Shown here in pieces: positions 8,444 through 25,863 of a stretch of 64,000 bases of DNA (position 1 is the first letter of the stretch; every line of letters begins with the position of its first letter). The DNA comes from a virus, in UHGV virus genome UHGV-0371537. The stretch is one strand, 5' to 3'. The notes beneath the pieces are model-generated. The model was given only the letters and a program-made list of their open reading frames with translations. It searched no databases and was not told where the DNA came from. Both the position numbers and the translations under genes were made by a program.

Positions 8444-11200
8444 TTATGCCCTGATAATGGAATTTGAAATAACGTCCAAGTAATCCGAAGAATTTTCAAT
8501 CGGGTTCAGGGCGCTTGGTTTGTAGTTCTCTTTCAAGAACCGGACAACACGATGTCGCTCAATAGTCATTCGGTTATCTCGTCTTGCTTTCTTCGTTGGC
8601 GTGCGCAGAATATCAAACGGCGTAAATCCGTGAGACCGCAATACATCTGAAGCATAGCCAAAGATCTGCAGCATCTGGTGTTCTGAACGGAAGATCTTTT
8701 CGTCACGCTCGTTCGCGTACAAATTCACGTTAAGAGAACTTATCGTGTCCTGGAAATGGCTGAAGCGGCGCTTGTCATGGACCGACACCGGGGCTTTCGC
8801 CAGGCTTTGGTAATGACGTACAGTCTGCTCATCCAAGATACCGTCTACAACTTTCATTAACTTGTTGTAACGACTGACCAATTTGCCATAACGATCATCT
8901 TCAACATCACCAAACGCCTGATGAACCAGATGGCTCCCGTATTTTAATCGATCCGTCCCAAGGCGCATGCGACGATGTGATTTCAATATGCGCTGGGCGC
9001 TATCACGCTCCATCATCGGCTTCACGTTTTCCAACATGATCTTCAGAATCTCATCAATCGGAATGAAGACCTCTGGGAACTTCTTCATCATTGGCACGGA
9101 TTTACGACGAGCCAAGAAGATTCGGTTGTGAACGTTCAACATATCGCTGATGTACACTGGCTTGCCTTCATCGTCGACACTGACTGCGTGTTCATATAGA
9201 GATTTACGAATACCCCGCGCCGTCGCCGTCGTCAACGTTCTGTCCATCACCTGATGGATACACTCATGGCCAGACACCTCAATGTAGACGATGCGCTCGC
9301 CCTTGTTGATAATATCTGAGATCTGGTCGCCCGTCAGTTCTTCTTGCAGGCAGATATCGAAGTTGCTGGACGTGAACGGAAACAGGCCAGGGTCTTTGGT
9401 GACCGGAGGCGTGACATATGTCAGTTCGTTCATGAACTTAACTTCAGCAGGCTCCAGCACCGCACTCAGCCAATCGACGAACTTGTCAGCGAAGCACAGA
9501 TAATCAACCGTCGTTTCTTCTTTGCCAATCCAAGTTTCAAAGAAATCATAGAGAGCCTGAGCATTCTTGAACGCAGGGTTGTCCTTAGATTGGTTGCGCT
9601 TGGTGACATAGGATGTGTTCGGCTTGGCCACGATGACCATCGTCCCTGTATCTTTCAGCTGTTTGATCTTCAGATTACGGGCACGAACACTGTCTTCGAT
9701 CACCACAGTAACATGCTGTCCGCGATCGATCCACTTCTGGATTTCTGAAATGGTCAAAGTACCGGACTCACCCCAGTCATAGAAGATCTCCATGGAGAAC
9801 GGTGACGACAGTTCATTGAACGGCGCTGTATGGTCATAGTCACGGTCGATCTCAACAGGCAGCGGGTAACGATAATATGAATCGTGGAAGCGCTTGTCCG
9901 CCGGATATTCCTTTTCAACCATCTTACGGAAGCCACTACCGAACATTTCGCTCAGTTTTGCCTTCTCCATATACAGGGCAAGAGGACCACGATTACACGC
10001 CAGCTCCAGGTCGCGCATCTTTTCTGTCAGGATTGCATTGGCGGTTCCCTTAAACTCCTCAGAGAGCGTCTCGCGGGTGAATTCGTCATACGACAGGTCT
10101 TCACGCGACGGCGGTACGTTCAGCGAGCCGAGTTCAAAGAATGTATAGGAGCACGGGAACTTGCTCATGATAGAGGCAGTTTCCGGGTCCAGCTGGTCCA
10201 GGTCAATCGGGTATGACACACCGCCCATCACAGCATAATGGGTGTTACCCTGACCTTTCGGCTGAATGTACGTGTTGTTGACCTTGAAGTCATAGCTGAT
10301 GTCTTCCCAGCCGAAGCGGTATGAAGCGTTCTCAACAATTGGGCGGTGTTCAGGGCGCATGACGCGGCCAAGACGAACCAGCTCGTCAGAGAAAGCAGAG
10401 AAGCGAGCGTTCTTCACCGGGATCTTCACCGTCATGCCGTTGAATTCATCGGTGTCTTCTGGTTTAGGATCACGAGTTTCAAGATCTTTGGTGATCAGGT
10501 CAACCGTTGGGATGCGCTTGGCGTTCAGATACATCAGGAAGCGATGAAGTTTGCCGTCCATGCGACTTTCCACCGTGAACGAATCTGATACCGCAAATGG
10601 TGATTTGGAGCCAAGGCCGAATGCCCCGATCTGGTCATCGTCTTCTTCCTTGGTACTATGGAAGAGTGTCGTGTACAGGCCTGGGGCGCGGATGATCTCG
10701 CCATCTTCACGGCGGAAGACAAGTACCCCATTGTAGAAGCCTGGGACGCCAATGACTTCAGCTGAGTCGGGAATCTCGTCTTCCTTCACGACCATGTTGC
10801 CTTCCAACAGCACTTCATCTTCCTGAGCCGGGATAGCCTCGCCAATGATCTTCTCAAGCGGCAGGCCGATACCATAATCACGGATTTCCAGCCATGGTTC
10901 GAAGTCATCAGGTAGATGTACGACAACCTGCTTACCCTTCGGTGCCAGGTATTTGCTATGGCGGGCAGGAGGCGGAGTGAGAGGCGCGTAGTGGGATGCG
11001 ATCATGCGATGCATACGATCACGCATGCCATGGGAGTCGATGGCGTTACAGACGGTTTCACGCAGGGCTGCAGCCTCTTTATAACGATACAATGATGAGA
11101 ACAGAGTCTCAAACATCTTATCGTTCATCTTCACGTTGAACGCCTGCCCCTGAATGGAAGACGACGAGCGGATAAAGTGCTCGGACTTGCGCATTTTCAT
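8444..11200 (-). CDS. rIIA: rIIA protein (GHKL-type ATPase N-terminal domain)
   Basis: 918 aa; N-terminal LRETVCNAIDSHG resembles the rIIA / histidine-kinase-like N-box; immediately upstream of rIIB as in T4-like phages. Confidence 0.85.
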   Translation of the reverse strand: MKMRKSEHFIRSSSSIQGQAFNVKMNDKMFETLFSSLYRYKEAAALRETVCNAIDSHGMRDRMHRMIASHYAPLTPPPARHSKYLAPKGKQVVVHLPDDFEPWLEIRDYGIGLPLEKIIGEAIPAQEDEVLLEGNMVVKEDEIPDSAEVIGVPGFYNGVLVFRREDGEIIRAPGLYTTLFHSTKEEDDDQIGAFGLGSKSPFAVSDSFTVESRMDGKLHRFLMYLNAKRIPTVDLITKDLETRDPKPEDTDEFNGMTVKIPVKNARFSAFSDELVRLGRVMRPEHRPIVENASYRFGWEDISYDFKVNNTYIQPKGQGNTHYAVMGGVSYPIDLDQLDPETASIMSKFPCSYTFFELGSLNVPPSREDLSYDEFTRETLSEEFKGTANAILTEKMRDLELACNRGPLALYMEKAKLSEMFGSGFRKMVEKEYPADKRFHDSYYRYPLPVEIDRDYDHTAPFNELSSPFSMEIFYDWGESGTLTISEIQKWIDRGQHVTVVIEDSVRARNLKIKQLKDTGTMVIVAKPNTSYVTKRNQSKDNPAFKNAQALYDFFETWIGKEETTVDYLCFADKFVDWLSAVLEPAEVKFMNELTYVTPPVTKDPGLFPFTSSNFDICLQEELTGDQISDIINKGERIVYIEVSGHECIHQVMDRTLTTATARGIRKSLYEHAVSVDDEGKPVYISDMLNVHNRIFLARRKSVPMMKKFPEVFIPIDEILKIMLENVKPMMERDSAQRILKSHRRMRLGTDRLKYGSHLVHQAFGDVEDDRYGKLVSRYNKLMKVVDGILDEQTVRHYQSLAKAPVSVHDKRRFSHFQDTISSLNVNLYANERDEKIFRSEHQMLQIFGYASDVLRSHGFTPFDILRTPTKKARRDNRMTIERHRVVRFLKENYKPSALNPIENSSDYLDVISNSIIRA

Positions 11201-11275
11201 AATATAGAAATCCTATCAATGTCAAAGGGAAACATATTGGTTGAGTGGGTATAATACGGTGGGAGTCTTCAATTG

Positions 11276-11299
11276 AAAAAGCCCTCAGCAGAGGGCTTT
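11276..11299 (-). terminator. terminator hairpin between the ORF at 11307-11651 and rIIA
   Basis: AAAGCCCTCTGCTGAGGGCTTTTT on the minus strand. Confidence 0.55.
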
Positions 11300-11306
11300 G
11301 TTCAGA

Positions 11307-11651
11307 TCAGTCTTCGGTTGCGAATCTGGCCTGGAAGTCGAATGTTGGCCGCTGGGCACCTGGCTCAAGAGTTTCCTCAAGATAACCAACGACCGTACGA
11401 GTCACAGACACTGGCTTCGAGCGGGGGTTCGGCGTTGCCAACGCAATGATAGAAGACTGCTCTTCTTCCATCCGCGTGTAATCTACATTGAAGTGATAAC
11501 GGCTACCGAATGCCGCCACTTCGACTTCGACGATTTGTAGATTGCTCAAAGCAGTGCTGCTCAGGGTTCCCACGTTCAACTGCGAGCGTAGATGCTCAAC
11601 GATGTTGGAGTACACATACTGTGGGGTGATCAGCTGTTCAATAGAACTCAT
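11307..11651 (-). CDS. hypothetical protein
   Basis: 114-aa ORF followed by a strong hairpin with a T-run. Confidence 0.45.
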   Translation of the reverse strand: MSSIEQLITPQYVYSNIVEHLRSQLNVGTLSSTALSNLQIVEVEVAAFGSRYHFNVDYTRMEEEQSSIIALATPNPRSKPVSVTRTVVGYLEETLEPGAQRPTFDFQARFATED

Positions 11652-11806
11652 GACATATCCTCTACTTTTCGGGTTCGGTTTTACTTAATCGAGCGACCTC
11701 TGCTCGAAGGAAGAGGATTTCATCGGCCATCATCTTACCTTCTTCGAACATCACCCATGATCTGGCTAACTTGGGATTGCCAACGGACAAATCCTTCAGG
11801 CGCTCC

Positions 11807-12010
11807 TCACTTACGTTTGCGCTTGTTCTTTCCATTGGTCTTCGCCTTCTTCTTGCGGGTTACAGATGGACGACCATGTCCGGCGGTGCCAGGACCACTG
11901 TTGACGTAGCGACTTTCATCCCAGAAATCACCACGGTGTTGGGCAACCTGAACGCTCTCTGACAACGCCAGAGCCGCAGCCACAACAACTGAAGACATCT
12001 TCGGCTTCAT
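11807..12010 (-). CDS. hypothetical small secreted protein (signal-peptide-like N-terminus, basic C-terminus)
   Basis: 67 aa, MKPKMSSVVVAAALALS hydrophobic N-terminus, KKKAKTNGKNKRKRK tail. Confidence 0.3.
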   Translation of the reverse strand: MKPKMSSVVVAAALALSESVQVAQHRGDFWDESRYVNSGPGTAGHGRPSVTRKKKAKTNGKNKRKRK

Positions 12011-12462
12011 TTCGTTTCCCCCTTGGCGGCATAGGACAGCGCCTGAACAATCATCACAGCCAGATCGATCGGTGAGTAGGTGCTGTTCAGATCTTCGCGA
12101 ACGCTCTGCTCGATTTCATAATCAGACTGAACTTCAGGACAGTTCTTTTCCTGGCGACGGCGTTCTGCGTTGATCATATCGCGCAGGAGCAGGTCGGTGA
12201 AGGAGTACTCATCAAAGTTCTCCAGATAATTCTGAATCCCCGTGGATACAGGGGCTGGCTCCGTCTCTCGCGCTCCTGTATCTTTCAGGGCGGCAACAGT
12301 GGCGTTAGCTGATACCATACAGTTGGGCAGGAACAGAAGATCAACTGTTTCTCCTGACTCTGAAGTCGGGTTCTTGCCCAGCACCTTGTACAGGGTCTTC
12401 AGGGTGCTGTCGAAGGTCAGAACGGTCTGCGCCAGTTCTTCATAAGTTGGTTTGGTGGTCAT
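12007..12462 (-). CDS. hypothetical protein
   Basis: 151-aa ORF; its stop overlaps the start of the preceding ORF. Confidence 0.5.
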   Translation of the reverse strand: MTTKPTYEELAQTVLTFDSTLKTLYKVLGKNPTSESGETVDLLFLPNCMVSANATVAALKDTGARETEPAPVSTGIQNYLENFDEYSFTDLLLRDMINAERRRQEKNCPEVQSDYEIEQSVREDLNSTYSPIDLAVMIVQALSYAAKGETK

Positions 12463-12839
12463 CAGCGTTTGCTCCGGCGTTTGTTCTTCATTTTAGTGGC
12501 CTGACGTTTGTGAGCAGCGGCTCCACGCAGGCGTGTGGGTTCTTGATAGCGGCGGTCGGCGTAAAATTCACGCATGCTGGCCTCGGCTGGTAATTCTCTT
12601 TCATCCAGTCGTTTCAGCTTGGCGATCAATTCCTTGGTGTCTGGCATCTGTTGTAGCTCGTCACAGATGATCATGCGTTCACCCGATTCACTTCGACGCT
12701 TCGGGATATCATCGGGAGTGATGTGCACAACCTCAACTCCTGGCAGCTTCTCTTCCAGTAGAACTTTGATCAACCGAGAGCCCAGTCCGGCTCCAACAAT
12801 CGCAATCTTTCTTGGCTTGTCTGTCATGTTCTTGTCCAT
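12462..12839 (-). CDS. hypothetical protein (Gly-rich IAIVGAGLGS N-terminus, basic C-terminus)
   Basis: 125-aa ORF preceded by a hairpin and a recurring TTATTGAA motif. Confidence 0.5.
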   Translation of the reverse strand: MDKNMTDKPRKIAIVGAGLGSRLIKVLLEEKLPGVEVVHITPDDIPKRRSESGERMIICDELQQMPDTKELIAKLKRLDERELPAEASMREFYADRRYQEPTRLRGAAAHKRQATKMKNKRRSKR

Positions 12840-12845
12840 GAAAAA

Positions 12846-12878
12846 GGGGATAGAGCAATAATACCCTATCCCCTTTTA
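12846..12878 (-). terminator. hairpin with flanking T-runs (terminator or attenuator) inside the early gene run
   Basis: GGGGATAGAGCAATAATACCCTATCCCC with TTTT on both sides; adjacent to the recurring TTATTGAAGAACG motif. Confidence 0.45.
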
Positions 12879-12896
12879 TTGAAGAACGATTAGTCT

Positions 12897-13304
12897 TCAG
12901 ATTCGACCGCCAATTTTTTCGCCGCGCATGTCCAGAACCGGTTTGCCTCCGACCGCCATCACATAGATGGTGTTGATTGTCTCGAACCAAGACAGTGCAT
13001 CAACACCTTCAGTGTACGGCGTCACCGGAATAGAGGTCTTGATCTCTTTACCCTTCGTGTTCGGATGTTCTGTGACTTGTAGGAACGCACAATTGCCACT
13101 TGGGTGGATAATGCCCTCTTCGAACAGCACGATCTTCTTGCGAGGGTGATTGGCTTCACCCAGGCACACCACCAGATGATGGATCATCTCGGGGCGGGTA
13201 ATCAACGTGTCGTCTTTGATGATCCCTTGCTTGATAGCAGAGATCACTATTTCGTCCACCAGAGCCTGCTGTTGACAAATGGACAGCGTATGTTCTAGTT
13301 TCAT
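12897..13304 (-). CDS. hypothetical protein
   Basis: 135-aa ORF. Confidence 0.5.
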   Translation of the reverse strand: MKLEHTLSICQQQALVDEIVISAIKQGIIKDDTLITRPEMIHHLVVCLGEANHPRKKIVLFEEGIIHPSGNCAFLQVTEHPNTKGKEIKTSIPVTPYTEGVDALSWFETINTIYVMAVGGKPVLDMRGEKIGGRI

Positions 13305-13308
13305 GGCA

Positions 13309-13878
13309 TCAGCCTTTGAAGTTGATCGGTTTCTGAACCCCAGCGTCGAACGCGGCCTGGGTACGGGTATCGCTCACAACTTGACAGGTCTTGTCAAGAT
13401 CGATGCGCGGGTAGCCAAACATGCCAGCGATCAACGAACCAGGGAACTGAGCCAGCTTGGTTTCGTACATTGCGCAGATATCCAGCTTCTTGGTCTGGCT
13501 GATGCGGAATTCATCACGCCCAGAACTGATCACCACCTGGATCTCTTTGTACAGGCTGGAATCGAACTGAATGTTCTGCTCCTGGATCCACTGCATAACA
13601 GCCTTGGAACCATCAGCGCCATAACGCCCTTCGAACGTGCCTTTGATCACTTCCTTCAGGCCGTCTTTGTACATGTCAGGAATCTGCGCCGTCTCCTGAA
13701 CTTTGAGCGTGTAGTTGCTCAGGTAGTTCTCTGAGTCTTTGTTGAACTTCTTGACCTGCTGTTCGGTGCGGTTGAAGTCGTTGAAGTAGCTGATGACTGT
13801 GCCGATGCCGACAATCACCATACCCAGCAAAGCCAAACCAACGATCCAACCTGTTGCAATACCCTTAGATTGAGACAT
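13309..13878 (-). CDS. LemA-family membrane protein
   Basis: 189 aa, single N-terminal TM helix (WIVGLALLGMVIVGIGTVISYF) followed by a soluble helical domain; size and topology typical of LemA. Confidence 0.6.
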   Translation of the reverse strand: MSQSKGIATGWIVGLALLGMVIVGIGTVISYFNDFNRTEQQVKKFNKDSENYLSNYTLKVQETAQIPDMYKDGLKEVIKGTFEGRYGADGSKAVMQWIQEQNIQFDSSLYKEIQVVISSGRDEFRISQTKKLDICAMYETKLAQFPGSLIAGMFGYPRIDLDKTCQVVSDTRTQAAFDAGVQKPINFKG

Positions 13879-13896
13879 TCTTACTTCCTCTTTTGA

Positions 13897-15012
13897 TTAA
13901 AAATTAAACGGATAACGACGACGGCCACCATTGTACTCCATTCGCTGCAATATGAAAATTGCGGTGAACGGCAGACAGCCCAGCAGAACAACAACCACAA
14001 CTTCCCAGGTCTTGAGTTCCCGCCACTTCAGGTACTCCATTTCCTTCATCTCAACGCGGTTGTAGCCTTTGGTGATGTTGGCGACAACGTCTGTCATGAC
14101 GCCGATACCCATATCATGCCCAGTCAGGTCCATACCGTTGCGGGAGTGAAGTTCACGGTTGTGCATACCATCGGCGAAGGAGGTGCTCTTGCCCCAATTG
14201 ATCTTCAGATCTTTGCTGATGTCGGTCACGACGATAACGTCGTTCTTTTTACCGCCATCCCAAGCATAGACCAAGCCCTGGAAGTATTCAACTGGCTGGC
14301 CGGAAGTCACAACCCAGACGATGTTCACCTGCTTGGCCGCGCCCAGCTTCTTCAGAACATCATTCAGGTAGTCGTTCCAGTATGTGGTTGGCAAAGCCAG
14401 ACCAGACACGTTCAGGACACGAGTGACGCGATAGTAGTCATAGACCTCAGGGTACTTGGGAATCTTGTCTTTGAAGCGCTCAGCAAACTGCTGGTCTGAG
14501 CGGGAGAACAGAGAGTCCTTGTTGCCCAGAACATAGTTCATATAGGAGTGCTCACGGGCGGCTGGCTCACCAATCTGAACCTGCGCCCAGCGCGGCGGCT
14601 GGCCAAGACCACGGCGGTCAATGCGGTCAATCGTCAGATTACCAACAGTCGTCAGCACATCCCAGTCCACGTCGTATGAATGCTCATAGCAGGTGCTGCA
14701 ATGGCGGGTACGGGTACAGGACTTGCTGCTACCGGAGCCGGAACACGATGTGGTGTAGTAGCAGTTGCACTGATACGAGTGCTCACAGCTCACCTTGTTC
14801 CGCTCTTTGCCAGTGACGTACCCGTTCAAGATCTCAACATCCCCTGAACTGCCGAGGGAGAACGCAGCATAAGCCCCGACCTGAATCAGACAGGACAGCA
14901 CCACCACAATCGCCGTCGCAATCAGAGTCTCTTTCGGCTCATGGGTCTTGCGGTGGTAGACCACAAACAGGACAGCCAGGATCAGTGGTACACCAAACAG
15001 GAGGTAGATCAT
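13897..15012 (-). CDS. membrane protein with Cys-rich extracytoplasmic region, partner of the LemA-like gene
   Basis: 371 aa, two N-terminal TM helices, Cys cluster (CEHSYQCNCYYTTSCSGSGSSKSCTRTRHCSTCYEH) and a C-terminal TM helix; lies 19 nt upstream of the LemA-like gene. Confidence 0.6.
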   Translation of the reverse strand: MIYLLFGVPLILAVLFVVYHRKTHEPKETLIATAIVVVLSCLIQVGAYAAFSLGSSGDVEILNGYVTGKERNKVSCEHSYQCNCYYTTSCSGSGSSKSCTRTRHCSTCYEHSYDVDWDVLTTVGNLTIDRIDRRGLGQPPRWAQVQIGEPAAREHSYMNYVLGNKDSLFSRSDQQFAERFKDKIPKYPEVYDYYRVTRVLNVSGLALPTTYWNDYLNDVLKKLGAAKQVNIVWVVTSGQPVEYFQGLVYAWDGGKKNDVIVVTDISKDLKINWGKSTSFADGMHNRELHSRNGMDLTGHDMGIGVMTDVVANITKGYNRVEMKEMEYLKWRELKTWEVVVVVLLGCLPFTAIFILQRMEYNGGRRRYPFNF

Positions 15013-15395
15013 AACACACCATCCACGAGTTGTGCCTTGGTCATCCCAAGGAGTTGATCTTTGTGCTCAGGCTTGGCACCGTTCTTTAACAACAGATCCC
15101 AACGCTCTTCATGGTACTGTGGGTCCAGCGCTTCATCAAATGTGATGTGATGGCGGAACATAACAGTTGCCACTGAATGGACGCAGTGAGCGATTGCGCG
15201 CTTCAGAGTGCGTTCTGGCGTAATGTGCTTTTTATATTCAATGCCCATCAGATCCAATTCTTTGAAAAGATAGGAGAATGACAGGGCGCCTTGTGAATGC
15301 AGCACGACGATAGTGGCTTTCTTAGGGTGGAGTGTACCATCCGTTTCTTTCATGAACAGATCGTACAGGTACTGTTTGTATTCGGTCTGTGTCAT
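15009..15395 (-). CDS. hypothetical protein
   Basis: 128-aa ORF with overlapping start/stop with neighbours. Confidence 0.5.
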   Translation of the reverse strand: MTQTEYKQYLYDLFMKETDGTLHPKKATIVVLHSQGALSFSYLFKELDLMGIEYKKHITPERTLKRAIAHCVHSVATVMFRHHITFDEALDPQYHEERWDLLLKNGAKPEHKDQLLGMTKAQLVDGVL

Positions 15396-15604
15396 TTAGA
15401 TTCACCCATGACGATAACGGAAGCGCCATTACGGAAGCACCCATATTCAGGTGGAAGACCTTCGCGAACTTTCTGTGCGAACGCTTCAGAAACCACCAGA
15501 CGGCCAACCAGAGGGTCTTTTTGTTTCGGAGTGAACTCAAAGTAATCACCAAAAGTCGCTTCCATATCCAGTAGGGACATATCTTCAATTCGTTGCATTG
15601 CCAT
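15392..15604 (-). CDS. hypothetical protein
   Basis: 70-aa ORF. Confidence 0.4.
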   Translation of the reverse strand: MAMQRIEDMSLLDMEATFGDYFEFTPKQKDPLVGRLVVSEAFAQKVREGLPPEYGCFRNGASVIVMGESK

Positions 15605-15623
15605 GATGTATTTCCTTGCAAAA

Positions 15624-15660
15624 GAAAGGGGAACGGGCTAATATTAACCCATTCCCCTTT
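15624..15660 (-). terminator. hairpin with T-run (terminator or attenuator)
   Basis: GGGGAACGGG-N-CCCATTCCCC followed by TTTATTGAAGAACG. Confidence 0.45.
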
Positions 15661-15685
15661 ATTGAAGAACGCAATCGCAATCAGA

Positions 15686-15853
15686 TTACTTTTTCTTCAG
15701 CTCATCCAGTTTGGCTTCGATTTGTTCCAGGATGTCTTTACCCTTCTGAACAATCACTTCACCGTCTTGCGCGTGTTTGCGGAAGACCAGAGCACCTGCG
15801 ATGAATCCAACAACCACACCCGGAAGTGCGTAGACCAACAGATCTTGTAACAT
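15686..15853 (-). CDS. small single-TM protein (about 56 aa), below the ORF-track length cutoff
   Basis: Hand translation: MLQDLLVYALPGVVVGFIAGALVFRKHAQDGEVIVQKGKDILEQIEAKLDELKKK; GAGGA Shine-Dalgarno-like sequence about 8 nt upstream; a TATAAATA element about 35 nt upstream. Confidence 0.3.
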   Translation of the reverse strand: MLQDLLVYALPGVVVGFIAGALVFRKHAQDGEVIVQKGKDILEQIEAKLDELKKK

Positions 15854-15889
15854 GATAATATCCTCACTTTATAGGCGAGGATATTTATA

Positions 15890-17116
15890 TCAGCGTTTCA
15901 AGAGTGCCATGAGGTTGACGCTGTTGGACTTCGGTTTATCAATCTTCGGTTTACCCAATTCTCGATACACCTGGTCAGGCTCCCAGCGCGTACCCTTTTG
16001 CAGATGCCAGATATGTAGAGGAACGCCAGTCTCAAAGAACACAGGCATCTTCCACTTCTGGACGCCTGGAACGTGCCCTGCAGGAGCCTTTTCGCACAAC
16101 AGGGTATCTGGTAGCCAGAGTGAACGGGCTTCCCAGAGCGCTGCACAGGAGTACTCCGGCCAGATGCGTTCCATGTAGTCGATCTCATCCCAGGTACGCT
16201 CGGCATCCCACCCAATGTAACGGGTATTCTTCTCACGGAAGAACTTCTTCAACCAACAAGCGCCCGAGGTTTCAAAGTTCAGGCGGTTGATGAACGTCAG
16301 GTGCCCAAACTCGGCCACGCAATCCTGGAACGCCTGCTCAAGGTCAGCCTCAAGGATGTCACACTCTTCATCCGTGATAGGGCAGCCATTTATCTTTTTC
16401 TTCCCGTGTTTGGTCACCCAATCGTCGCGGTTGGACAAGAACGCCGCGCCGTTACGGTTGGACTCACTGCCATCACGGTCACGCAACATGAAACCAGGGA
16501 CGTCGATATCCCACATGTTACCGAAGACCATGTTCAGGGCTTCCAGAAAGTTCCAGGCGCTGAGGCGGCCGAAGTATTTCCAGGACATCGCCGTGTCCCA
16601 CAACTTAGTGAACTGGTCGCCTTGGGGCTTGGTCTCCAACATCGGTCGGAATGCTTCCATCTGGGAGCGCCCAGCCAGCCAGTCAATGTAGGACTGAACA
16701 CATGGTATCATCTTCGACTTGCGATAGCGACAGTCAGTATCGAAACGCATGCGATCAAAGTTCAGGTTGTACCAGTCACAAAAGCACTGCATCTCTTCTT
16801 TAGACTGAGGAGGCACAGGGAACTCACTGTAGATCGTCCATGGACCGATGGCGTTATAACAGCAGCCCCAAAGGAACGACATCCAGATCTTGCGCTCGAT
16901 CTTCTCAAGCTGCGTGATGCCTTCAGTGACTTCAATCGCGTAGTCCATCAGGCGCATCTGCTGGTTGTGCTCTTCGGTGTAAGACAGCGCCTCCACCCAA
17001 GCCTTGAGCAGGTACATGCGATTCTCAGGCTTACGATAATCAACAGCCAGGTCAATCGGGTACTTCCATTCAGCCGGAGGCGTATAGCCTGATGGCATTT
17101 TAGAAATATGAATCAT
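15890..17116 (-). CDS. hypothetical Trp/Cys-rich protein; candidate DNA-base-modification enzyme (aGPT-Pplase-like?), assignment uncertain
   Basis: 408-aa ORF in the same operon-like run as a P-loop kinase; no catalytic motif recognised by eye. Confidence 0.55.
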   Translation of the reverse strand: MIHISKMPSGYTPPAEWKYPIDLAVDYRKPENRMYLLKAWVEALSYTEEHNQQMRLMDYAIEVTEGITQLEKIERKIWMSFLWGCCYNAIGPWTIYSEFPVPPQSKEEMQCFCDWYNLNFDRMRFDTDCRYRKSKMIPCVQSYIDWLAGRSQMEAFRPMLETKPQGDQFTKLWDTAMSWKYFGRLSAWNFLEALNMVFGNMWDIDVPGFMLRDRDGSESNRNGAAFLSNRDDWVTKHGKKKINGCPITDEECDILEADLEQAFQDCVAEFGHLTFINRLNFETSGACWLKKFFREKNTRYIGWDAERTWDEIDYMERIWPEYSCAALWEARSLWLPDTLLCEKAPAGHVPGVQKWKMPVFFETGVPLHIWHLQKGTRWEPDQVYRELGKPKIDKPKSNSVNLMALLKR

Positions 17117-17298
17117 TCAATTTTACTCCCGAGTTCGACACGGAACGCCAGATAGAAGAAAGTGGCGATCGATATAGGACAAATCACCAGGAAGGGGCGC
17201 TGCTCAACCCCTTCTGTGACCATGACGCCGACGAGCGATACCGTGAAGATAACGAACATCAGCATCATGAAGATAAAATCAACCGACCTGATCTTCAT
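17113..17298 (-). CDS. small membrane protein
   Basis: 61-aa hydrophobic ORF. Confidence 0.3.
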   Translation of the reverse strand: MKIRSVDFIFMMLMFVIFTVSLVGVMVTEGVEQRPFLVICPISIATFFYLAFRVELGSKIE

Positions 17299-17638
17299 CT
17301 TTCGCTTCCTCTTCAGGAGCCAGCTGAATGTCTTCTGGTTTCACGAACCCCATCGGACGTTCCCACATATCGATAAAGCGACGGTCGGCGGTCACGAACC
17401 ACAGACGGGCTGCGGTGTGTGTCTTACCTGAGATGAACATTTGGGCGTTGGCCTGAGTGCGGAATGGAGCCGCCTGTAGCCACTGGCCGAAGTCTTTGGA
17501 CGACGGGTTGGCATTCAGCTGGAACTGAGGGATCACGCAGTTCTTTTCAGGAATCAGGCGCACAGCAGTAATGTGCTTGGCGTTTCCGGTGTAGTCAATC
17601 GCAACAGCCACAGCATCGCGAGGGATTTGAATTTTCAT
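17279..17638 (-). CDS. hypothetical protein
   Basis: Start moved to the internal ATG (MKIQIPRDAV...) that overlaps the upstream ORF stop. Confidence 0.4.
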   Translation of the reverse strand: MKIQIPRDAVAVAIDYTGNAKHITAVRLIPEKNCVIPQFQLNANPSSKDFGQWLQAAPFRTQANAQMFISGKTHTAARLWFVTADRRFIDMWERPMGFVKPEDIQLAPEEEAKDEDQVG

Positions 17639-17838
17639 TTTGGTTCCTTGAATATTTTGTAACCAGCAGCGCCGATAGACATCACCGCGCCAATACAGTA
17701 CATCACAGTCACGTTCAACTTCTCTGAGGTTGTTAAGTCCAGAGGGGTGAAATGATAGGCTAGGGCAGCGCACATTGAAACGGCTACCATAATCAGGCCG
17801 ATGAACAACAGATAATTAGACAACCGCTTCATGATCAC
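17635..17838 (-). CDS. small membrane protein (two TM helices)
   Basis: 67 aa, LLFIGLIMVAVSMCAALAY and VMYCIGAVMSIGAAGY hydrophobic segments. Confidence 0.4.
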   Translation of the reverse strand: MIMKRLSNYLLFIGLIMVAVSMCAALAYHFTPLDLTTSEKLNVTVMYCIGAVMSIGAAGYKIFKEPK

Positions 17839-18749
17839 CCCTTCTTCATCAGGTCAAGGAGAGAGCGCGACGCTGCCTTCGGTGCTTCTGTCTGGGCACT
17901 CGCCTTGGTTTTAGTTTTGGATGCCTTCTGCGGCTTCTCAGGCACTCTGTGCGCCAAAGGATCCTCACCACCGACCTCACGGGTCATTGGGTCGGTCTCA
18001 CAGAAAGCATAGAAGTCTTTGCTGTAAAACCCATACGCTCGAGTTTCGTCCAATTGATGGTGGATAGCATTACCAACCACCCACAAAGGAGCATCGAACG
18101 GAAGGATAGCCACTTCTGAATTTGTCGGTGATTTGAACTCCTGAGTGTTGGTTTCCGGTGCTTTATACAGAATGTCCTGCCCGCTGTAGTTGTCAACCAC
18201 AGGGGTGAAGCCCAGCGCCAGCATTTCGGCCTTCGACTTCTCAAACTCCTTGGAGTAAGATTCGTTGCGAGACCAGCCGGAGTCCCCTGCTTCTTTACCA
18301 GAGCGACCACGGATGCGGGCATCGTACTGATAGCGGTCGGGGTACGCAAAGTACAGCAGCGCCAATGATTCAATCGGATAGTTCTTGAACATCCACTCAG
18401 GACGCCATTTGTCCGACAGCATGAGGGGTTCGCCCTCACACACCAGGGTGTAACCCTGAGCCAGCCAGCCTTTGACCAGGTCACGAGCGATATCACCCGA
18501 GCCTGTGGCAGCATGAATGGCGTCCATGGAAGTCCAGGAAGCCAGGCCGGATTTGTTGGACACAGTGTACTGGCCGACGAAGATCAACTTCAGCTCTTCG
18601 AATTTCAGGCCAAACGGGCGCGTCTTGTCACCAATGGTGTAGGTGAGTTCGGTAGGCTCCAGCTTAGTGCGCAGCCATTCGATGAACTGAACCACTCTCG
18701 TACCCTTGCCCGTGGCCGAGGTGCCTTTCACTACAATTATTTTAGCCAT
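17835..18749 (-). CDS. P-loop kinase (Walker A GTSATGKGT); candidate nucleotide or DNA kinase
   Basis: 304 aa with N-terminal Walker A motif IIVVKGTSATGKGT; no resemblance to T4 dNMP kinase or Pnk in my recollection. Confidence 0.6.
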   Translation of the reverse strand: MAKIIVVKGTSATGKGTRVVQFIEWLRTKLEPTELTYTIGDKTRPFGLKFEELKLIFVGQYTVSNKSGLASWTSMDAIHAATGSGDIARDLVKGWLAQGYTLVCEGEPLMLSDKWRPEWMFKNYPIESLALLYFAYPDRYQYDARIRGRSGKEAGDSGWSRNESYSKEFEKSKAEMLALGFTPVVDNYSGQDILYKAPETNTQEFKSPTNSEVAILPFDAPLWVVGNAIHHQLDETRAYGFYSKDFYAFCETDPMTREVGGEDPLAHRVPEKPQKASKTKTKASAQTEAPKAASRSLLDLMKKG

Positions 18750-19427
18750 TTAATATTCTCCAACCGAGACATGTTTTAGCCCTACCTTTCAAGAGATTCG
18801 TTATATTACCGGAAGGGAGGCCATATTGAAGTTCCATATCGCATCTTCTTAACTCAACAATGCGACCATCTTTGTGCTGCCATTTGTAAATCGTTTCATC
18901 GCGGCCAGGACCAATGTCTATCAGGCCAAGAGCATGCAGCCTCTTCCTAGTTTCCCCTCCACGCGTTTGAGATTCAGAGGAAGGTCTTGGTGGTTTGGGG
19001 ATCTTCCCTTCTGACATCAATTTGCTTATGATCTTACCCTTTCTGGCTTGTGCTTCAGGGGTGAGTCTTGGTGGAGGTTTAATCTTACCTTCAGCGATCA
19101 AACGTTTGCGGGTTGCGGCGCTCTTTGCGGATGACTCTGGCGTGGCCAATGGAGGCTCCCACCACCGACGACCATATTGTAGCACCACCCAGAGTCAAGG
19201 ATCTCCTGACAGACCAGTTCAGACTCTATCTCAAGGATAACTGATTCCTTCCCTCGGAACAGAACTTCAAACGTGAACTGGTCTTCACCATATTTCTTGA
19301 ACGCTCGTTGTAATGCAATGCTCCCCTGACCACACTTATGCTCAGCCAACCGCCTATCCGGTTCTGAAGTGACACCGATATAGAATTTATGATTGACGAG
19401 ATTCGTGATCAGGTAGAGCGACAGCAT
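18742..19427 (-). pseudogene. GIY-YIG homing endonuclease (Seg-like), disrupted by a frameshift into two ORFs (19098..19427 GIY-YIG domain; 18742..19188 NUMOD3-like repeats plus C-terminal DNA-binding region)
   Basis: ORF 19098..19427 carries LYLITNLVNHKFYIGVT...RRLAEHK (GIY-YIG); ORF 18742..19188 in another frame carries repeated GKI-x-x-PP / GKIISKL NUMOD3-like motifs; the two overlap by about 90 nt. Confidence 0.55.
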
Positions 19428-19732
19428 TACACAGCATCCTCAATACGCCAGCTCACGCCGCCCATCCATGGTGCCCAGAATACAGCAACCTGTGGGCGGC
19501 CATTCTCTTCAAACTTCACTTTATACTGGTCGTCGAAGTTATAGAAGATTTCATCCGCTTCAGAGCGCTGGCCGTTCTCCACCAGTGCTTCATGGAGAGC
19601 CTTGGCTGCGCCGATCGGAGTCGGAGTCTCCTGCTGGCGAATGAAGTTGTTGACATGGATAATCACGCCATCCATATCGCTATCACCGGAACGCTTGTCT
19701 GGGGTTTCCCCGAACTTATTCTGTTCTTGCAC
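19427..19732 (-). CDS. hypothetical protein
   Basis: 101-aa ORF. Confidence 0.45.
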   Translation of the reverse strand: MQEQNKFGETPDKRSGDSDMDGVIIHVNNFIRQQETPTPIGAAKALHEALVENGQRSEADEIFYNFDDQYKVKFEENGRPQVAVFWAPWMGGVSWRIEDAV

Positions 19733-19741
19733 GATGTCCTC

Positions 19742-20521
19742 CTATCGGACGTATTGATAATGACGAATCAGGCGATTTGCCACTTCAACAATATTGTGAT
19801 TCAGAGAGTGGAAGTGGTTCTGGCCTTCTACTGGTTTAATATAAAGCATATCTTCCGAGTTCGAAAGATCCAGTTTTTCATAATTGCCCTGAGGAACAAA
19901 GATGACGAAGATGTTGTTCAGGCCGCACGGCTCGACATACTTCGGATTGTCGTCAATCAGGACATCGCCAGCCAGCAGATGCTTTTCGTCGGTGCTGACG
20001 AACCCGTTGAAGATGCCAGGGAACTTATCGTAGACAAACTGGCGTTTGCTGCGCTCATGCTCCGGCTCACATTTAGACACCGCAACGAATTCAACATTGT
20101 CGAAATCTTCAAGCAGAATCTTCTTCAGATTCACCAGGAATTCAAAAGCGCCAGGAAGCGGGTTCATCTTGGTATACAGATCAGGGCGACGCCACCAGTC
20201 CATAGGATCACGCCCTGTGGGAGCATACATCCATTTCCCAGCGAGGTACACGCGGCGTATCAACCACGCCGGATGTGCACGTTCGCGCATCAGGATAGCC
20301 AGGTCGCCAGCATGAGCCATATAGCACTCTTTGGTGATCGGCTGGAACTGGAAGGACTTTTGGTCGCCAGTTGCGAGAGCCGCCGCAGCGATGTTCTCTT
20401 CGTTGAACCACTGAACCCAAGGGGACAGGCTATCAACCAACGTCAGGTCAACATCCACCAGAACACGATACAGACCGCCGACCTTTGATTTCATATCATA
20501 GATACAAACCAGATTGTTCAT
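19742..20521 (-). CDS. HAD-superfamily phosphatase / nucleotidase (putative)
   Basis: HAD motif I VLVDVDLTLVDS near the N-terminus; start set at the ATG (MNNLV) that overlaps the upstream stop in an ATGA arrangement. Confidence 0.6.
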   Translation of the reverse strand: MNNLVCIYDMKSKVGGLYRVLVDVDLTLVDSLSPWVQWFNEENIAAAALATGDQKSFQFQPITKECYMAHAGDLAILMRERAHPAWLIRRVYLAGKWMYAPTGRDPMDWWRRPDLYTKMNPLPGAFEFLVNLKKILLEDFDNVEFVAVSKCEPEHERSKRQFVYDKFPGIFNGFVSTDEKHLLAGDVLIDDNPKYVEPCGLNNIFVIFVPQGNYEKLDLSNSEDMLYIKPVEGQNHFHSLNHNIVEVANRLIRHYQYVR

Positions 20522-20868
20522 TTGTCTTCCTCCACTTTGTCGTAACCAGTGGCAACACACTGCTCTTCAGTGCAATCAGCGTACAGAACAACAGACGCCT
20601 GCTTCACATAGGTGGTGCAGTGGTAGGTTTCGTCTTCCTGAATGGAATCGTCATAGTTGCAGACCGTCTGCAGAGGTCCAGGGGTGGTGTTGTCCAGCGC
20701 TGCATGAGCCTTGATGGTATCTTCCATCTTGGATACAGCTTGTTCGTTGGTGAACGTCGGCGCGTCAAGGTCTACAGTAGACGCAACGTCCAGAAGGGTA
20801 GAGCATGCGGTGGTAGAGAAAGCCAGAGCGCACACCAGAAGAATCTTATTGAGTTTCATTTCAATCAC
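20518..20868 (-). CDS. small secreted protein or lipoprotein
   Basis: 116 aa with signal-peptide-like N-terminus MKLNKILLVCALAFSTTACS. Confidence 0.5.
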   Translation of the reverse strand: MIEMKLNKILLVCALAFSTTACSTLLDVASTVDLDAPTFTNEQAVSKMEDTIKAHAALDNTTPGPLQTVCNYDDSIQEDETYHCTTYVKQASVVLYADCTEEQCVATGYDKVEEDK

Positions 20869-20921
20869 CTGTTTGTCAAAGGGTTAACAGGGGGAATTAT
20901 ATCCCCCTTTGGTTTATTGAA

Positions 20922-23921
20922 TCAACCTTTCTTCTTTTGCATCATGGCAAGAAGGTTCACACGGCGCTTGTGTGACCAGCCGACCACGTCAAGGATAGAC
21001 TGAATCGGATCAATGAAGGACTTCTCAAAGGCCGCCTGATAATCTACCCATTTGCCCAGACCAAGCTCCTCAGGGAAGAACTCAGGATATGCAAAGTAGT
21101 TCTGCCCAAACGGGTTGCCCGGCTTCAACAACACCATCTGCACCTTATCACCCGACTCAATCATCGGTAGACCCAGTTCTTCGTTCTTCTCGACCAGACG
21201 GTTGTAGCCAACACAAGCCTTGGCAGCGAAGTGAGCACCGGAGATAAACGAGCCGTCGGAGGCCACACACTTCTCTATGTCGGATACGCCGGATGCCTTG
21301 GCGATATCGTCTACGGAGAGTTTCATGTACTCCTCTTTGTAACCACTAATGAGAGTCTGTACTTCCTCTTCGGTGCCGAGTAGGATCTTCTCATAGCACT
21401 TGACAAGACGCTCACGACACCATTCCGGCGTGGTGGACTTACGGGCTTCCAGGCCTTTGAACTTAATCTTCGGCTTCTCGTACTTGATCCCCTCACTGTC
21501 GTACACAGCCATGGCATACATCTTCTTGGCTCGCCAGACAGCGGCTGACGCAATGACCTCTCGCTCCCACACCATGCGTTGTTCGAAGCCGTTCATGGTG
21601 TCACACAGAAGCTGTGCCCACTCATTGGTCTTCGGCTGGTAGTTGTCTTTGATCCATTGGTCGATATTATCAACCATAGCATGATGGTCAGTAACATCAG
21701 GCCACAACTGCTTAACAAGACGCTCAATGCAGATGTAGTTGGAGTCGGTATCACCTGCGATGACGAAGTCCTGGCCTGTTGTACCACACAGCTTGTTCAG
21801 ATAGTCATCAGTGTAACGCTTGTTCCACTTGTTGATCAGCTGACCGGATGTGGTGATGGCTTCGGCAATGTTGAGGTTGAAGTACTCTTTGAACCAGACG
21901 TTTGAGATCGCGCCATAACCTGCGTTCATCAAGATCTTCAGACCTTGCTGAAGGGTATCTTGAGCAACACCCAGGTCTTCCCACTTCTTCATCACTTCGG
22001 TCAGGGCATCAAGATCAATGTTCTTGTGCTCTTCATACCACTCTGGGTCATAGTAGCGAGACTTCATGGCAGACTCAAGATGGAAGTCGCCCTTCGACAT
22101 CTCTTTACACCAACCAGCCCACTGCTCGTATTTCAGACCCTTGGCTTTCTCCACTTTACGGTCGCTGTAGATACCGCGCATGATTTCAGACAGGAACGAC
22201 ATCTTCTCGTTGCTGAAGAACTGTACGTTCGGTGTGAAGGACACGTTGTAGCGGCGCAGGGTTTCAAAGCGGAACTCACCCAGAGCAACCAGTTCGTCAA
22301 CAACCTGCAGGCGTTCGTCAATCGCACGCAACAGCTTGTCGTGAAGGGCTTTCATCAACCGACGTTTGTGCATCGGCGTTGCCATGTTATTCATCTGAGC
22401 AGCCAGCTCTTCACACATCGCCTCAATGATTTCGCGGCGTTTGTGTTTGTCTTCAACGATGGTCTCTGGACCGAGGTTGTACTGCTGAATGATGTGAGGA
22501 TAAAGGGAGTTCAAGTCCTCTGAGAAGACCCAGAAGTAGATCCCTGGCGTGACCTCCATGACGTATGCGCCCTCAAAATCGGTCGGACCATCGTATACAC
22601 GCTGGATCTTAGGCACGATGCCCTTCTCATACAGACGATAGTAGCACATGGCCAGCCAGGGTGCCACTGTGCCAAGGCCGTCTTCATAGTTCGACTTGGT
22701 GCGGTACGCAAGGACGAACATCAGCTGGAGCAGACGCAGCTTCTGTTCGAGACGCCACACCAGCTTGACGTCCTTGATACCATATCGGGTGTGTTTGGCA
22801 TAGTCGTTGAAGTACAGGTCAAAGAGGGACTTGCTCTCACTGTAGTCCATCTTCTTCTCACCCAGCTCACAGTAAGCAATCCAATCAAGAGAGTAACGCT
22901 CACGGGTGGTGTACGTGTGCTTCTTGTAGATCTGCATGTAGTCGAGCATAGGACAGCCCACGAACTGATACGTCGTGATATCGCCCTTCTTATCGCGAAT
23001 GATACGCTTCTTGATGATACCCCAAGGACTGAGGCGCGATGTTTCGGCTTCACCCAGAACCTGGTTCATGCGCTCAACAAGATACGGGCTATCGAACGTT
23101 TCAATGTTCCAGCCTGTCCAGCCATCAAACTGACGCTGTGACCAGAAGTCAAGGAAAGATCGCAGCAGATCCTGCTCGGTGACAAACTCCTTGTACTCCA
23201 CCTCAAGTCCACCGATCTCCGCGTCTTCTGGATCGTATCTGAACTTCGCACGATCCTTCGCGCACGGCATACCCCACACCATGAACTTATTGGTCGCCAT
23301 GTCCTGAAGCTGGATGAGCGTGATGGGGAACGCTGCATTCATGTCCTGGGTGATCTTGCCATTGCTATCAATGATAGGGAACTGGTCGGTCACGTTGTTG
23401 CTGATAAAGGAACTGGGAAAGTGCTCACGGATGAAGTCATGGTTGGCCAGTACCTGCTGATGGAAGCGGCGGATGCGTGCCTCGCTACCTTTGAACGTCT
23501 GCTGCTCAATAGTCGGATGAGGGAATGGACCCTTGGTCATCTCCCCGTCTTTCCACCCAGCGGTGAACACTTCGATATCGAGGTTAGCAATATGGATGTT
23601 GGAGTAATCCGGCTCAATCTTTCCAGGGAAGCTGTGGGCGATGAACTGGTATGCATAATCGGTCTGCCCGTAAATGGCTGCACCCTGGACTTCCTTGTAC
23701 TCTTCAAGGTAGTTGTCAGCAGTGCGCATGTCAGGGAACTTCTTAGAGACCAGGGGTTCGTTGAGCAGGCCGACCTTTTCAACATTTGAATAATCAGCCG
23801 TGGGTAAATAGAGAGTGGGTTCGAATTTCTTTTTCAACAGACGGCGATTACCCATGTCATCTGCGATTCGAATCAACAGGTCATTGCCCCGGCGGGCAAC
23901 GTTCGTATAGAAGACGGTCAT
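20922..23921 (-). CDS. gp43: DNA polymerase, family B (T4 gp43-like), with 3'-5' exonuclease domain
   Basis: 999 aa; exo motif IANLDIEVF, pol motif A DLNSLYPHII, motif B KILMNAGYG, motif C VIAGDTDS. Confidence 0.92.
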   Translation of the reverse strand: MTVFYTNVARRGNDLLIRIADDMGNRRLLKKKFEPTLYLPTADYSNVEKVGLLNEPLVSKKFPDMRTADNYLEEYKEVQGAAIYGQTDYAYQFIAHSFPGKIEPDYSNIHIANLDIEVFTAGWKDGEMTKGPFPHPTIEQQTFKGSEARIRRFHQQVLANHDFIREHFPSSFISNNVTDQFPIIDSNGKITQDMNAAFPITLIQLQDMATNKFMVWGMPCAKDRAKFRYDPEDAEIGGLEVEYKEFVTEQDLLRSFLDFWSQRQFDGWTGWNIETFDSPYLVERMNQVLGEAETSRLSPWGIIKKRIIRDKKGDITTYQFVGCPMLDYMQIYKKHTYTTRERYSLDWIAYCELGEKKMDYSESKSLFDLYFNDYAKHTRYGIKDVKLVWRLEQKLRLLQLMFVLAYRTKSNYEDGLGTVAPWLAMCYYRLYEKGIVPKIQRVYDGPTDFEGAYVMEVTPGIYFWVFSEDLNSLYPHIIQQYNLGPETIVEDKHKRREIIEAMCEELAAQMNNMATPMHKRRLMKALHDKLLRAIDERLQVVDELVALGEFRFETLRRYNVSFTPNVQFFSNEKMSFLSEIMRGIYSDRKVEKAKGLKYEQWAGWCKEMSKGDFHLESAMKSRYYDPEWYEEHKNIDLDALTEVMKKWEDLGVAQDTLQQGLKILMNAGYGAISNVWFKEYFNLNIAEAITTSGQLINKWNKRYTDDYLNKLCGTTGQDFVIAGDTDSNYICIERLVKQLWPDVTDHHAMVDNIDQWIKDNYQPKTNEWAQLLCDTMNGFEQRMVWEREVIASAAVWRAKKMYAMAVYDSEGIKYEKPKIKFKGLEARKSTTPEWCRERLVKCYEKILLGTEEEVQTLISGYKEEYMKLSVDDIAKASGVSDIEKCVASDGSFISGAHFAAKACVGYNRLVEKNEELGLPMIESGDKVQMVLLKPGNPFGQNYFAYPEFFPEELGLGKWVDYQAAFEKSFIDPIQSILDVVGWSHKRRVNLLAMMQKKKG

Positions 23922-23982
23922 GTAATTCTCCAGGTTATCCGTGCCGTTAGCACGTGGGCATATTTAACCATAGAGCCATTCA

Positions 23983-24573
23983 TTGACCAAGGAGTTTATT
24001 ATGGCAATCCCCCTCGTTGGTATGATCCCAGGGGCGCTCAAGCAACTCTGGAACCTTGGGACTGATTTGATTCAATATAAGCGGGAAGTTGTGCAAGCCA
24101 AACACGATGTCAAGCTGGAGGCAATCAAGTCCTCCTCAGATTGGGAGCTGTCTAAGATCACCGAGGTCGGCGGATCTTGGAAAGATGAATTCTGGACTAT
24201 TGTGTTGGCTGTACCCGCTATCCTCGTCATGACTGCTCCGGTCGTGGAACTTATTTTGTTCCCCGGCGAGTATCATAAAGGGGATTTTATCAAAGCAGTA
24301 ATCGGTGGCCTCCAGGCGCTCGATACCGCACCTGAATGGTATACCTATTCATTATTGACAGCAATTAGTGCATCATTCGGTATCAAAGGCTACAACCACT
24401 ACAAAAGCAACGGGCGAAAAGCCCAGGCTGTGGATGCTCTCAAGCAATTTGGGGTCCGGGTCGTACAAAAAGATCCCACTGTTGTTACTCAGTCGGGTTC
24501 TCCCAATCTTGAGTCTGCTCCCCCAGCTGGGTCTACTTCGACCTCTGGCGCGTGGCCTGATCTGAAGAAATAA
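23983..24573 (+). CDS. membrane protein (N-terminal and internal TM helices)
   Basis: 196-aa ORF divergent from the polymerase gene; hydrophobic segments AIPLVGMIPGAL and FWTIVLAVPAILVMTAPVV; terminator hairpin downstream. Confidence 0.5.
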   Translation: MTKEFIMAIPLVGMIPGALKQLWNLGTDLIQYKREVVQAKHDVKLEAIKSSSDWELSKITEVGGSWKDEFWTIVLAVPAILVMTAPVVELILFPGEYHKGDFIKAVIGGLQALDTAPEWYTYSLLTAISASFGIKGYNHYKSNGRKAQAVDALKQFGVRVVQKDPTVVTQSGSPNLESAPPAGSTSTSGAWPDLKK

Positions 24574-24615
24574 GTTCAAGGGGAGGAAACTCCCCTTTCT
24601 TTTGGTGTTTAGGGA

Positions 24616-24828
24616 ATGAAAGTGGTAAACAAGAGATTGCTCGTCACCCAAGGCGGGGCGACGATAGTGCGCGGAAGGATCTATGAACAGACACAATTGG
24701 GCGGACACAAGACGCGCCTGACTGTCAAGGCTCCAGATGGCGGTTGGCCGACAAAGGTAATCGTCCCAGACGGTCTCATAGAACGAGGGTCGGCGACGTA
24801 CAAGGGAGCAGAGTTCAAAATTTATTAA
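24616..24828 (+). CDS. hypothetical small protein
   Basis: 70-aa ORF followed by a bidirectional terminator hairpin. Confidence 0.4.
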   Translation: MKVVNKRLLVTQGGATIVRGRIYEQTQLGGHKTRLTVKAPDGGWPTKVIVPDGLIERGSATYKGAEFKIY

Positions 24829-24865
24829 AATATTTATTGAAGAAAGGGGCTTAACGCCCCCTTTC

Positions 24866-25324: not shown

Positions 25325-25347
25325 GTTGGGTTCCTCAGTGGGTTAGC

Positions 25348-25365
25348 CATATGGGGTATTTAGGC
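25348..25365 (-). promoter_or_regulatory. late-promoter-like CTAAATACCCCATATGG upstream of the acidic protein gene
   Basis: Minus-strand reading GCCTAAATACCCCATATGGCTAAC about 30 nt upstream of the ATG at 25324. Confidence 0.45.
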
Positions 25366-25824: not shown

Positions 25825-25826
25825 AG

Positions 25827-25857: not shown

Positions 25858-25863
25858 GATGGA

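Follow-up and report, generated by a model that had tools for sequence, protein, structure and literature searches.

A TTCAAT-type box at fixed distance from -10 hexamers as a putative promoter element, with overlapping hairpins, in an Agtrevirus-like phage genome

The 8-mer TTCAATAA, recurrent in the 64,000-nt viral DNA analysed (UHGV-0371537; hereafter the window), was most probably the upstream recognition element of Ackermannviridae promoters, with a sigma-70-type -10 hexamer 14 bp after TTCAAT and with overlapping hairpin cassettes (probability about 0.8). Judged by its sequence, it is the upstream half of the known Ackermannviridae ('ViI-like') promoter motif, and is not novel. The case for promoters came from the -10 element and its fixed spacing, both of which were absent from the initial annotation.

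Results

Genomic context

The 12-kb stretch around the motif had 93.4% nucleotide identity to Salmonella phage P46FS4 and 92.6% to Shigella phage Ag3, with the same gene order in both, and by this likeness the window is from an Agtrevirus-like phage of the Ackermannviridae. Positions 1-34,600 were occupied by genes on the minus strand, namely those for topoisomerase, rIIB, rIIA and DNA polymerase, five tRNA genes and numerous small genes without a known function. Late structural genes followed on the plus strand from 34,870 onward. Intergenic gaps between the promoter-bearing minus-strand genes were only 40-80 nt long.

The second published motif of the family, the putative late promoter CTAAATAcCcc, was also found in the window. 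CTAAATAYC occurred 9 times (0.35 expected), each time pointing towards the gene that followed it, at 25355 and 25849 on the minus strand and at 34825, 38711, 41799, 44337, 49447, 55960 and 60978 on the plus strand.

Number, position and orientation of the box

The box, written TTATTGAA where TTCAATAA lies on the gene-sense minus strand, was present in 10 copies in the window (2.18 expected); none of 100 shuffled sequences had as many, in agreement with the initial claim of a recurring motif. In nine copies, TTCAATAA lay on the minus strand and so had the sense of the local genes (exact plus-strand TTATTGAA starting at 12876, 15659, 20914, 24834, 29335, 32714, 33941, 34580 and 60616), and a single copy had the opposite sense (30857-30864), as had been described. 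Nine of the 10 copies fell in the 13.7% of the window outside CDS and tRNA genes (binomial P = 1.5e-7). In the whole rebuilt P46FS4 genome, 23 of 27 copies were intergenic (intergenic DNA, 11%), so the motif was not equally frequent inside coding regions. The box extended beyond the published TTCAAT to TTCAATAA, and often to TTCTTCAATAA.

Coordinates given in the initial annotation were right to within 1-14 nt; 32711 became 32714, 33934 became 33941, and 30871 became 30857. A motif-like site was present where a copy had been placed at 27837, but as the variant TTCAATGA (27839-27846) and not as an exact match. The long form TTATTGAAGAACG, to which the motif was said often to extend, was exact at 12876 and 15659 only, and had 1 mismatch at 24834 and 30852. 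Absent from the earlier list were the copy at 34580, which belongs to a perfect putative promoter, the rIIA site TTCAATTG at 11272-11277, and the intragenic copy at 60616.

Spacing to the -10 hexamer

On the gene-sense strand, TTCAAT was followed by a -10 hexamer of the sigma-70 type (TAnnnT) at a fixed 14 bp (range 13-15). Matches to TTCAAT-N14-TAnnnT numbered 6 in the window (0.51 expected). An N14 spacer with TAnnnT was found at five minus-strand sites, with exact TATAAT in two of them (20896-20921 and 34562-34587), and N13 and N15 variants occurred besides. The distance from TTCAAT to TAnnnT peaked sharply at N = 14 in intergenic DNA only (6 of 21 in the window), and a peak at N = 14 was also seen in P46FS4 (11 of 48 intergenic; background 0.017 per position). 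Spacing variants from N13 to N16 exist, and the -10 hexamer was often TATTAT or TAATAT.

The box occupied approximately -32 to -25; the 8-mer ended 12 bp from the -10 hexamer and was centred near -29. The distance from 8-mer to -10 was 12 bp at six intergenic sites of P46FS4 (range 11-13), and likewise in the window. At every putative promoter a gene or tRNA started 36-50 nt downstream of the -10, in the same orientation. Minus-strand transcription starts, predicted 7 nt after the -10, fell near 11244, 12851, 15634, 20889, 27814, 29311 and 34555.

A scan of 10501-30500 for canonical sigma-70 promoters (TTGACA, 16-18 bp, TATAAT) showed no enrichment (15 found, 16.2 expected) and recovered only 2 of the box promoter sites, and on these grounds the class A sites detailed below were rejected as consensus sigma-70 promoters. 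TTCAAT shares only 3 of its 6 positions with TTGACA, and its distance from the -10 is 14 bp instead of 17 bp; the -10 hexamers were near consensus. At class A sites, neither a -35 match 17 bp away nor a TGn extension was present. Given the 3-of-6 match to the -35, the 14-bp spacing and the absence of TGn, unmodified sigma-70 holoenzyme cannot be assumed to recognise them. Tested as an element working in either orientation at an equal distance, the inverted box (TTATTGAA) gave no spacing peak (1-2 cases). Among the matches listed in a scan of IMG/VR for TTCAATAA-N12-TATAAT, only scattered single occurrences in unrelated contigs were seen; they were chance-like and had no bearing on taxonomic range.

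Individual putative promoters

The class A promoter at 12858-12883 (minus strand) had TTCAAT at 12883-12878, the 14-bp spacer AAAAGGGGATAGGG and TATTAT at 12863-12858, with a predicted start at approximately 12851, upstream of a DUF7231 gene (12462-12839); box and -10 were invariant across Ag3, P46FS4, S118 and KpS110. At 15641-15666 (minus strand), class A TTCAAT and an N14 spacer preceded TAATAT, with a predicted start at approximately 15634 and a downstream gene at 15392-15604. The class A promoter at 20896-20921 (minus strand; TTCAAT, N14, TATAAT) lay directly after the DNA polymerase stop codon and preceded a DUF7292 gene (20518-20859). It was conserved in S118 and KpS110, and its counterpart in Serratia phage 2050H1 had a different sequence, with a TATACT -10 again in the loop of a G+C hairpin.

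A class A promoter with a variant box was found at 27821-27846 (minus strand; TTCAATGA, N14, TAAAAT), upstream of the gene at 27127-27780. The class A promoter at 34562-34587 (minus strand; TTCAATAA, then TATAAT) was free of a hairpin, preceded the gene at 33956-34525 and sat between divergent genes, facing the late gp6 baseplate gene; base for base, it was the same as the published EspM4VN instance at 61226-61251. This site and the next were further putative promoters beyond the earlier list. The rIIA promoter at 11251-11277 (minus strand) had TTCAATTG, N15 and TATTAT, or in an alternative reading TTTTCA, 17 bp and TATTAT. It was kept in Ag3, P46FS4, KpS110 and Serratia 2050H1, and Kuttervirus S118 had the box variant TTCTAT.

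Upstream of tRNA-Asn (29199-29273), TTCAATAA was followed by N13 and TATAGT at 29318-29342 (minus strand); this element had no orthologue among the compared relatives and was window-specific. The site at 33925-33948 (minus strand) was promoter-like in another layout, with GCTTTA, TTCAATAA, 10 nt and TAAAGT, and a small ORF downstream starting at approximately 33905; box and TAAAGT were conserved, and Serratia had ATCAATAA and TATAGT. Downstream of the putative promoters lay rIIA, genes after that for DNA polymerase, tRNAs, and small genes without a known function. A Pfam search of these genes and of the annotated 'regulators' of P46FS4 returned DUFs and one HU-family protein, and no activator candidate.

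The initial proposal that the motif marks promoter/terminator junctions was supported for most sites: 6 of the 9 listed sites were promoter-like, 4 of them with an overlapping hairpin, and the copies at 24834, 32714 and 30857 had no correctly spaced -10.

In the tRNA region, the stretch 28494-28521 (ATTTGGCACGAGTTAGGGGATTCGAACC) looked like the 3' terminus of the adjacent tRNA genes, and ARAGORN called no tRNA there; a degenerate tRNA of the kind noted in CBA120 is one possibility. An ORF of 220 aa abutting tRNA-Met (31117-31779, minus strand) had weak Pfam matches to Phage_endo_I and NUMOD3, below the curated thresholds, and may encode a homing endonuclease.

Hairpins in the same gaps

The hairpin at 12837-12877 (minus strand), a putative terminator of the upstream gene 12897-13304, had a 16-bp stem (12842-12877) and a U-run to 12837 (-29.4 kcal/mol, z -6.4). 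That at 15617-15660 (minus strand), also a putative terminator, had its stem at 15625-15660 followed by a U-run (-30.6 kcal/mol, z -5.9) and lay over the promoter spacer and -10. Both 16-bp stems were flanked by A and U tracts, and the 47-nt cassettes 12842-12888 and 15625-15671 formed a paralogous repeat (74% identity). With the orthologues and both paralogues aligned, compensatory changes were found in 7 of the 16 pairs.

A G+C stem of 7 bp at 20889-20908 (minus strand) held the -10 in its loop and was without a U-run. The hairpin at 27804-27833 (minus strand; 10-bp stem, z -4.2) covered the spacer and -10, and was weak as an intrinsic terminator. At these four sites (12876, 15659, 20914 and 27837), the promoter spacer formed the 5' arm, the -10 was at the apex and the predicted start was in the 3' arm. 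A putative terminator of the gene upstream of the rIIA promoter (11278-11299, minus strand) immediately preceded the box at 11272, which its U-tract entered; likewise, the U-tract of 24846-24860, just upstream of the box at 24834, ran into that box. A G+C-rich stem with a U-run, as expected of an intrinsic terminator, was found at 12842-12877, 15625-15660, 11278-11299 and 24846-24860.

The hairpin at 32714 was not significant (z = -0.24), and there was none at 33941 or 34580. The initial annotation had set GC-rich hairpins beside all its copies; this was borne out at 12876, 15659 and 27837, by the short stem at 20914 and by the terminator-like hairpin upstream of 24834, but not at 32714 or 33941. 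In P46FS4, a stem of at least 5 bp enclosed 7 of the 12 box promoters; for the remaining intergenic -10-like hexamers, a control set made impure by box variants and terminator loops, the figure was 32 of 63 (Fisher P = 0.44). A specific coupling of the hairpin to the box was rejected on this comparison and because some box promoters were hairpin-free. Box and hairpin are best regarded as distinct elements placed together in a very short gap.

Copies outside the promoter layout

The orphan box at 24834-24841 (minus strand) was followed by no -10 and adjoined the bidirectional terminator-like hairpin at 24846-24860. The corresponding box in Ag3, P46FS4 and S118 belonged, as the distal inverted copy, to a TTTACT-N16-TATACT promoter. 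Compared with P46FS4 (144570-146343), the window lacked at junction 24841/24842 a 1.8-kb cassette present in Ag3, P46FS4 and S118, consisting of a TTTACT-type promoter and four small plus-strand genes. Microhomology at the deletion junction was only 2-5 nt, and an orphan TTATTGAA was left against the terminator.

The TTCAATAA copy at 32714-32721 (minus strand) was conserved, lay inside an unusually conserved non-coding block (32602-32778) and had no -10 at promoter distance; an Rfam search of 27700-34900 returned five tRNAs and otherwise sub-threshold matches only, and did not explain it. The plus-sense TTCAATAA at 30857-30864, between the YadA-anchor gene and tRNA-Arg, was not followed by a -10 and was not conserved; it is possibly a chance occurrence. 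The intragenic copy at 60616-60623 (minus strand), inside and antisense to the late gene 58764-60974, is best read as a chance occurrence.

Approximately 2.8 kb beside the tRNAs (31127-33955) held no convincing ORF. Blocks 31825-32050, 32300-32478 and 32602-32778 of this region were 91-94% identical to Kuttervirus S118, versus approximately 79% for coding DNA, and the last of them folded better than its shuffles (z = -3.6). In this region Rfam gave only a sub-threshold STnc100-like match, at 32190-32300. The conserved blocks possibly encode non-coding RNAs or form a DNA element.

Inside the phage tRNA cluster, an ORF of 449 aa (29403-30752, minus strand) matched the YadA-like membrane-anchor domain (PF03895, E = 1e-13), which is typical of trimeric autotransporter adhesins. 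The DNA flanking this ORF had no counterpart at that place in Ag3, P46FS4, S118 or KpS110.

Conservation across relatives

Orthologous gaps were compared in Ag3, P46FS4, Kuttervirus S118 (approximately 79% identity), Taipeivirus KpS110 (approximately 76%) and Miltonvirus 2050H1 (approximately 70%). Box and -10 were kept in Agtrevirus, Kuttervirus, Taipeivirus and Miltonvirus, and the spacer varied in sequence and was constant in length. The footprint was clearest at 34562-34587, where the spacer was CACCTTCACCAA, CACTTGTACGAA or CATTCGTTCTAT and box and -10 were invariant in four genomes. The motif was absent from the distant Vibrio relative D508, in which the rIIA promoter was canonical (TTGTCA-17-TATAAT). 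A gene for a 600-aa 'RNA polymerase sigma factor' adjoined the DNA polymerase gene of D508 (L011 23009-24811), and TTCAAT-N14 was absent from that phage.

A second promoter layout was found outside the window, with TTTACTTC, TTCAATAA, N6 and TATACT or TATAAT (P46FS4 30065, 67434 and 144583; L010 14986 and 16553; L009 12990; L012 21352). These TTTACT-type promoters of the relatives had a T4-early-like -35 (TTTACT), a 16-17 bp spacer holding the box TTCAATAA, a TATACT or TATAAT hexamer and a conserved leader ending in GAAGGAAATACATCATG. They often had a second box, in either orientation, approximately 21 bp upstream. The presence of the box in other positions around TTTACT-type promoters may point to a protein-binding module and not simply to a -35 substitute; these sites lie outside the window and are anecdotal.

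Discussion

Proposed mechanism

Host RNA polymerase with sigma-70 would most likely read the -10 hexamer, and the box would replace the normal -35 element. Eight such box promoters would serve the minus-strand block of early or middle genes. Because the gaps measure only 40-80 nt, the terminator-like hairpin of the upstream gene overlaps the promoter at four sites. With the predicted start in the 3' arm and the spacer as 5' arm, RNA reading through from upstream would fold the hairpin and stop, and RNA started at the promoter, being without the 5' arm, would not form the terminator and would continue. Each cassette would in this way end one transcription unit and start the next.

Alternative explanations

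The box may instead be bound by a phage-encoded activator that replaces the contact of sigma-70 region 4 with the -35, as a functional analogue of the T4 MotA box and of sigma appropriation by AsiA/MotA, and the sites would then be middle promoters needing prior phage protein synthesis. This reading is possible, at odds well below even. It agrees with T4 middle-promoter geometry (8-mer ending 12 bp from the -10 and centred at approximately -29), with the lack of a usable -35 at 17 bp and of TGn although the -10 hexamers are near consensus, with conservation over 8 or more bp, with downstream genes that include rIIA, nrdA and other nucleotide-metabolism genes, and with the operator-like 8-mer in varied positions and both orientations around the TTTACT-type promoters of relatives. 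On the other side, MotA, AsiA, Alt and ModA are reported absent from the family (PMC3184105) and no candidate factor emerged from the searches, and the class A sites could alternatively be weak sigma-70 promoters peculiar to these phages (TnTTCA, spacer of 16 bp; at rIIA, TTTTCA-17-TATTAT). A broader form, in which TTCAATAA would be the operator of a phage-encoded DNA-binding factor for an early-to-middle switch, standing in for -35 recognition at -32 to -25 to activate class A promoters and, from sites inside or next to them, shutting off TTTACT-type early promoters, is rather unlikely. If true, these phages would have evolved independently a counterpart to T4 sigma appropriation, possibly acting on hypermodified-thymidine DNA. 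SPO1 TF1 binds hmU-containing DNA. The product of P46FS4 ORF68 (L006 17372-17650), just downstream of a GCTTTA-TTCAATAA element, is an HU/IHF-family DNA-binding protein (PF00216, E = 2e-29) and, by likeness to TF1, a candidate box-binding protein.

It is improbable that the motif recurs through copying of a mobile or recombining regulatory cassette, by shuffling like that of PeSLs, and not through selection at each site. The 74% identity of the two 47-nt cassettes, the recombination driven by PeSLs in RB49 and phi1 (PMC2839356) and the loss of the 1.8-kb promoter-plus-gene cassette beside the 24834 box would suit it, but the sites are orthologous and fixed in place across four genera, the cassettes beyond the one paralogous pair have only box and -10 in common, and the short microhomology at the 24841 junction does not indicate box-to-box recombination. 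Still less probable is an action of the motif (TTCAAUAA) on RNA, either as a site for RNase processing or stability, or within the terminator itself, where it would supply the A-tract of a bidirectional signal. The AAA after TTCAAT does pair with the hairpin U-tract at 12876 and 15659, and terminator U-tracts enter the box at 11272 and 24834; TTCAAT itself, however, lies outside the stems, and such a reading leaves the conserved TATAAT 14 bp downstream unexplained. Both RNA-level readings were rejected because the 14-bp distance to the -10 was constant for stems of 7 to 16 bp and also where there was no hairpin (34562-34587 and orthologues). The RNA-processing site offered as an option in the initial annotation found nothing in its support. 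An upstream promoter element remains the preferred reading of the box.

Comparison with known systems

The motif TTCAAT[N14]TATAAT was reportedly first described by Adriaenssens et al. in 2012, in the proposal of the genus 'Viunalikevirus'. It is given as a regulatory motif of Ackermannviridae for Agtrevirus EspM4VN (PMC7283392). The window agrees with it in sequence, 14-bp spacing, phage family and intergenic placement, and adds a longer box, spacers of N13-N16, TATTAT and TAATAT as -10 hexamers and many hairpin overlaps, with no essential difference. ViI-like phages were reported to lack MotA, AsiA, Alt and ModA, and early promoters were not found in the 2011 CBA120 paper (PMC3184105). A literature search for transcriptomes or start-site maps of Ackermannviridae found none. 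How ViI-like phages control host RNA polymerase before late transcription is an acknowledged gap, for which TTCAAT-N14-TATAAT is the main candidate signal. The window supplies eight orthologous, footprinted sites with predicted starts, which are useful for annotation and leave the known picture of the motif unchanged.

The MotA box of T4 is centred at -30, 12 +/- 1 bp from the -10 (PMC2988021). The box of the window resembles it in lying near -30 in place of a -35, approximately 12 bp from a near-consensus -10, and both kinds of promoter precede rIIA-type and nucleotide-metabolism genes. The MotA box consensus, (a/t)(a/t)(a/t)TGCTTtA, differs from TTCAATAA, which has no TGCTT core. T4 early or TTTACT-type promoters have a layout unlike that of class A, and none was intact in the window, where the 24834 copy is a leftover distal box.

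PeSL cassettes of the T4-type phages RB49 and phi1 have a functional promoter/stem-loop layout, with a G+C stem-loop that stops transcription from upstream and whose stem is between -35 and -10 or over the -10; they mediate recombination, recur ahead of small genes whose function is not known and lie on either side of the DNA polymerase gene (PMC2839356). Unlike the putative promoters of the window, PeSL promoters fit the sigma-70 consensus including the -35, and the window gave no clear evidence of cassette-mediated recombination or mini-circles. The likeness lies in the arrangement, with the stem of the window over the spacer and -10 at 12876, 15659, 20914 and 27837, and just upstream at 11272.
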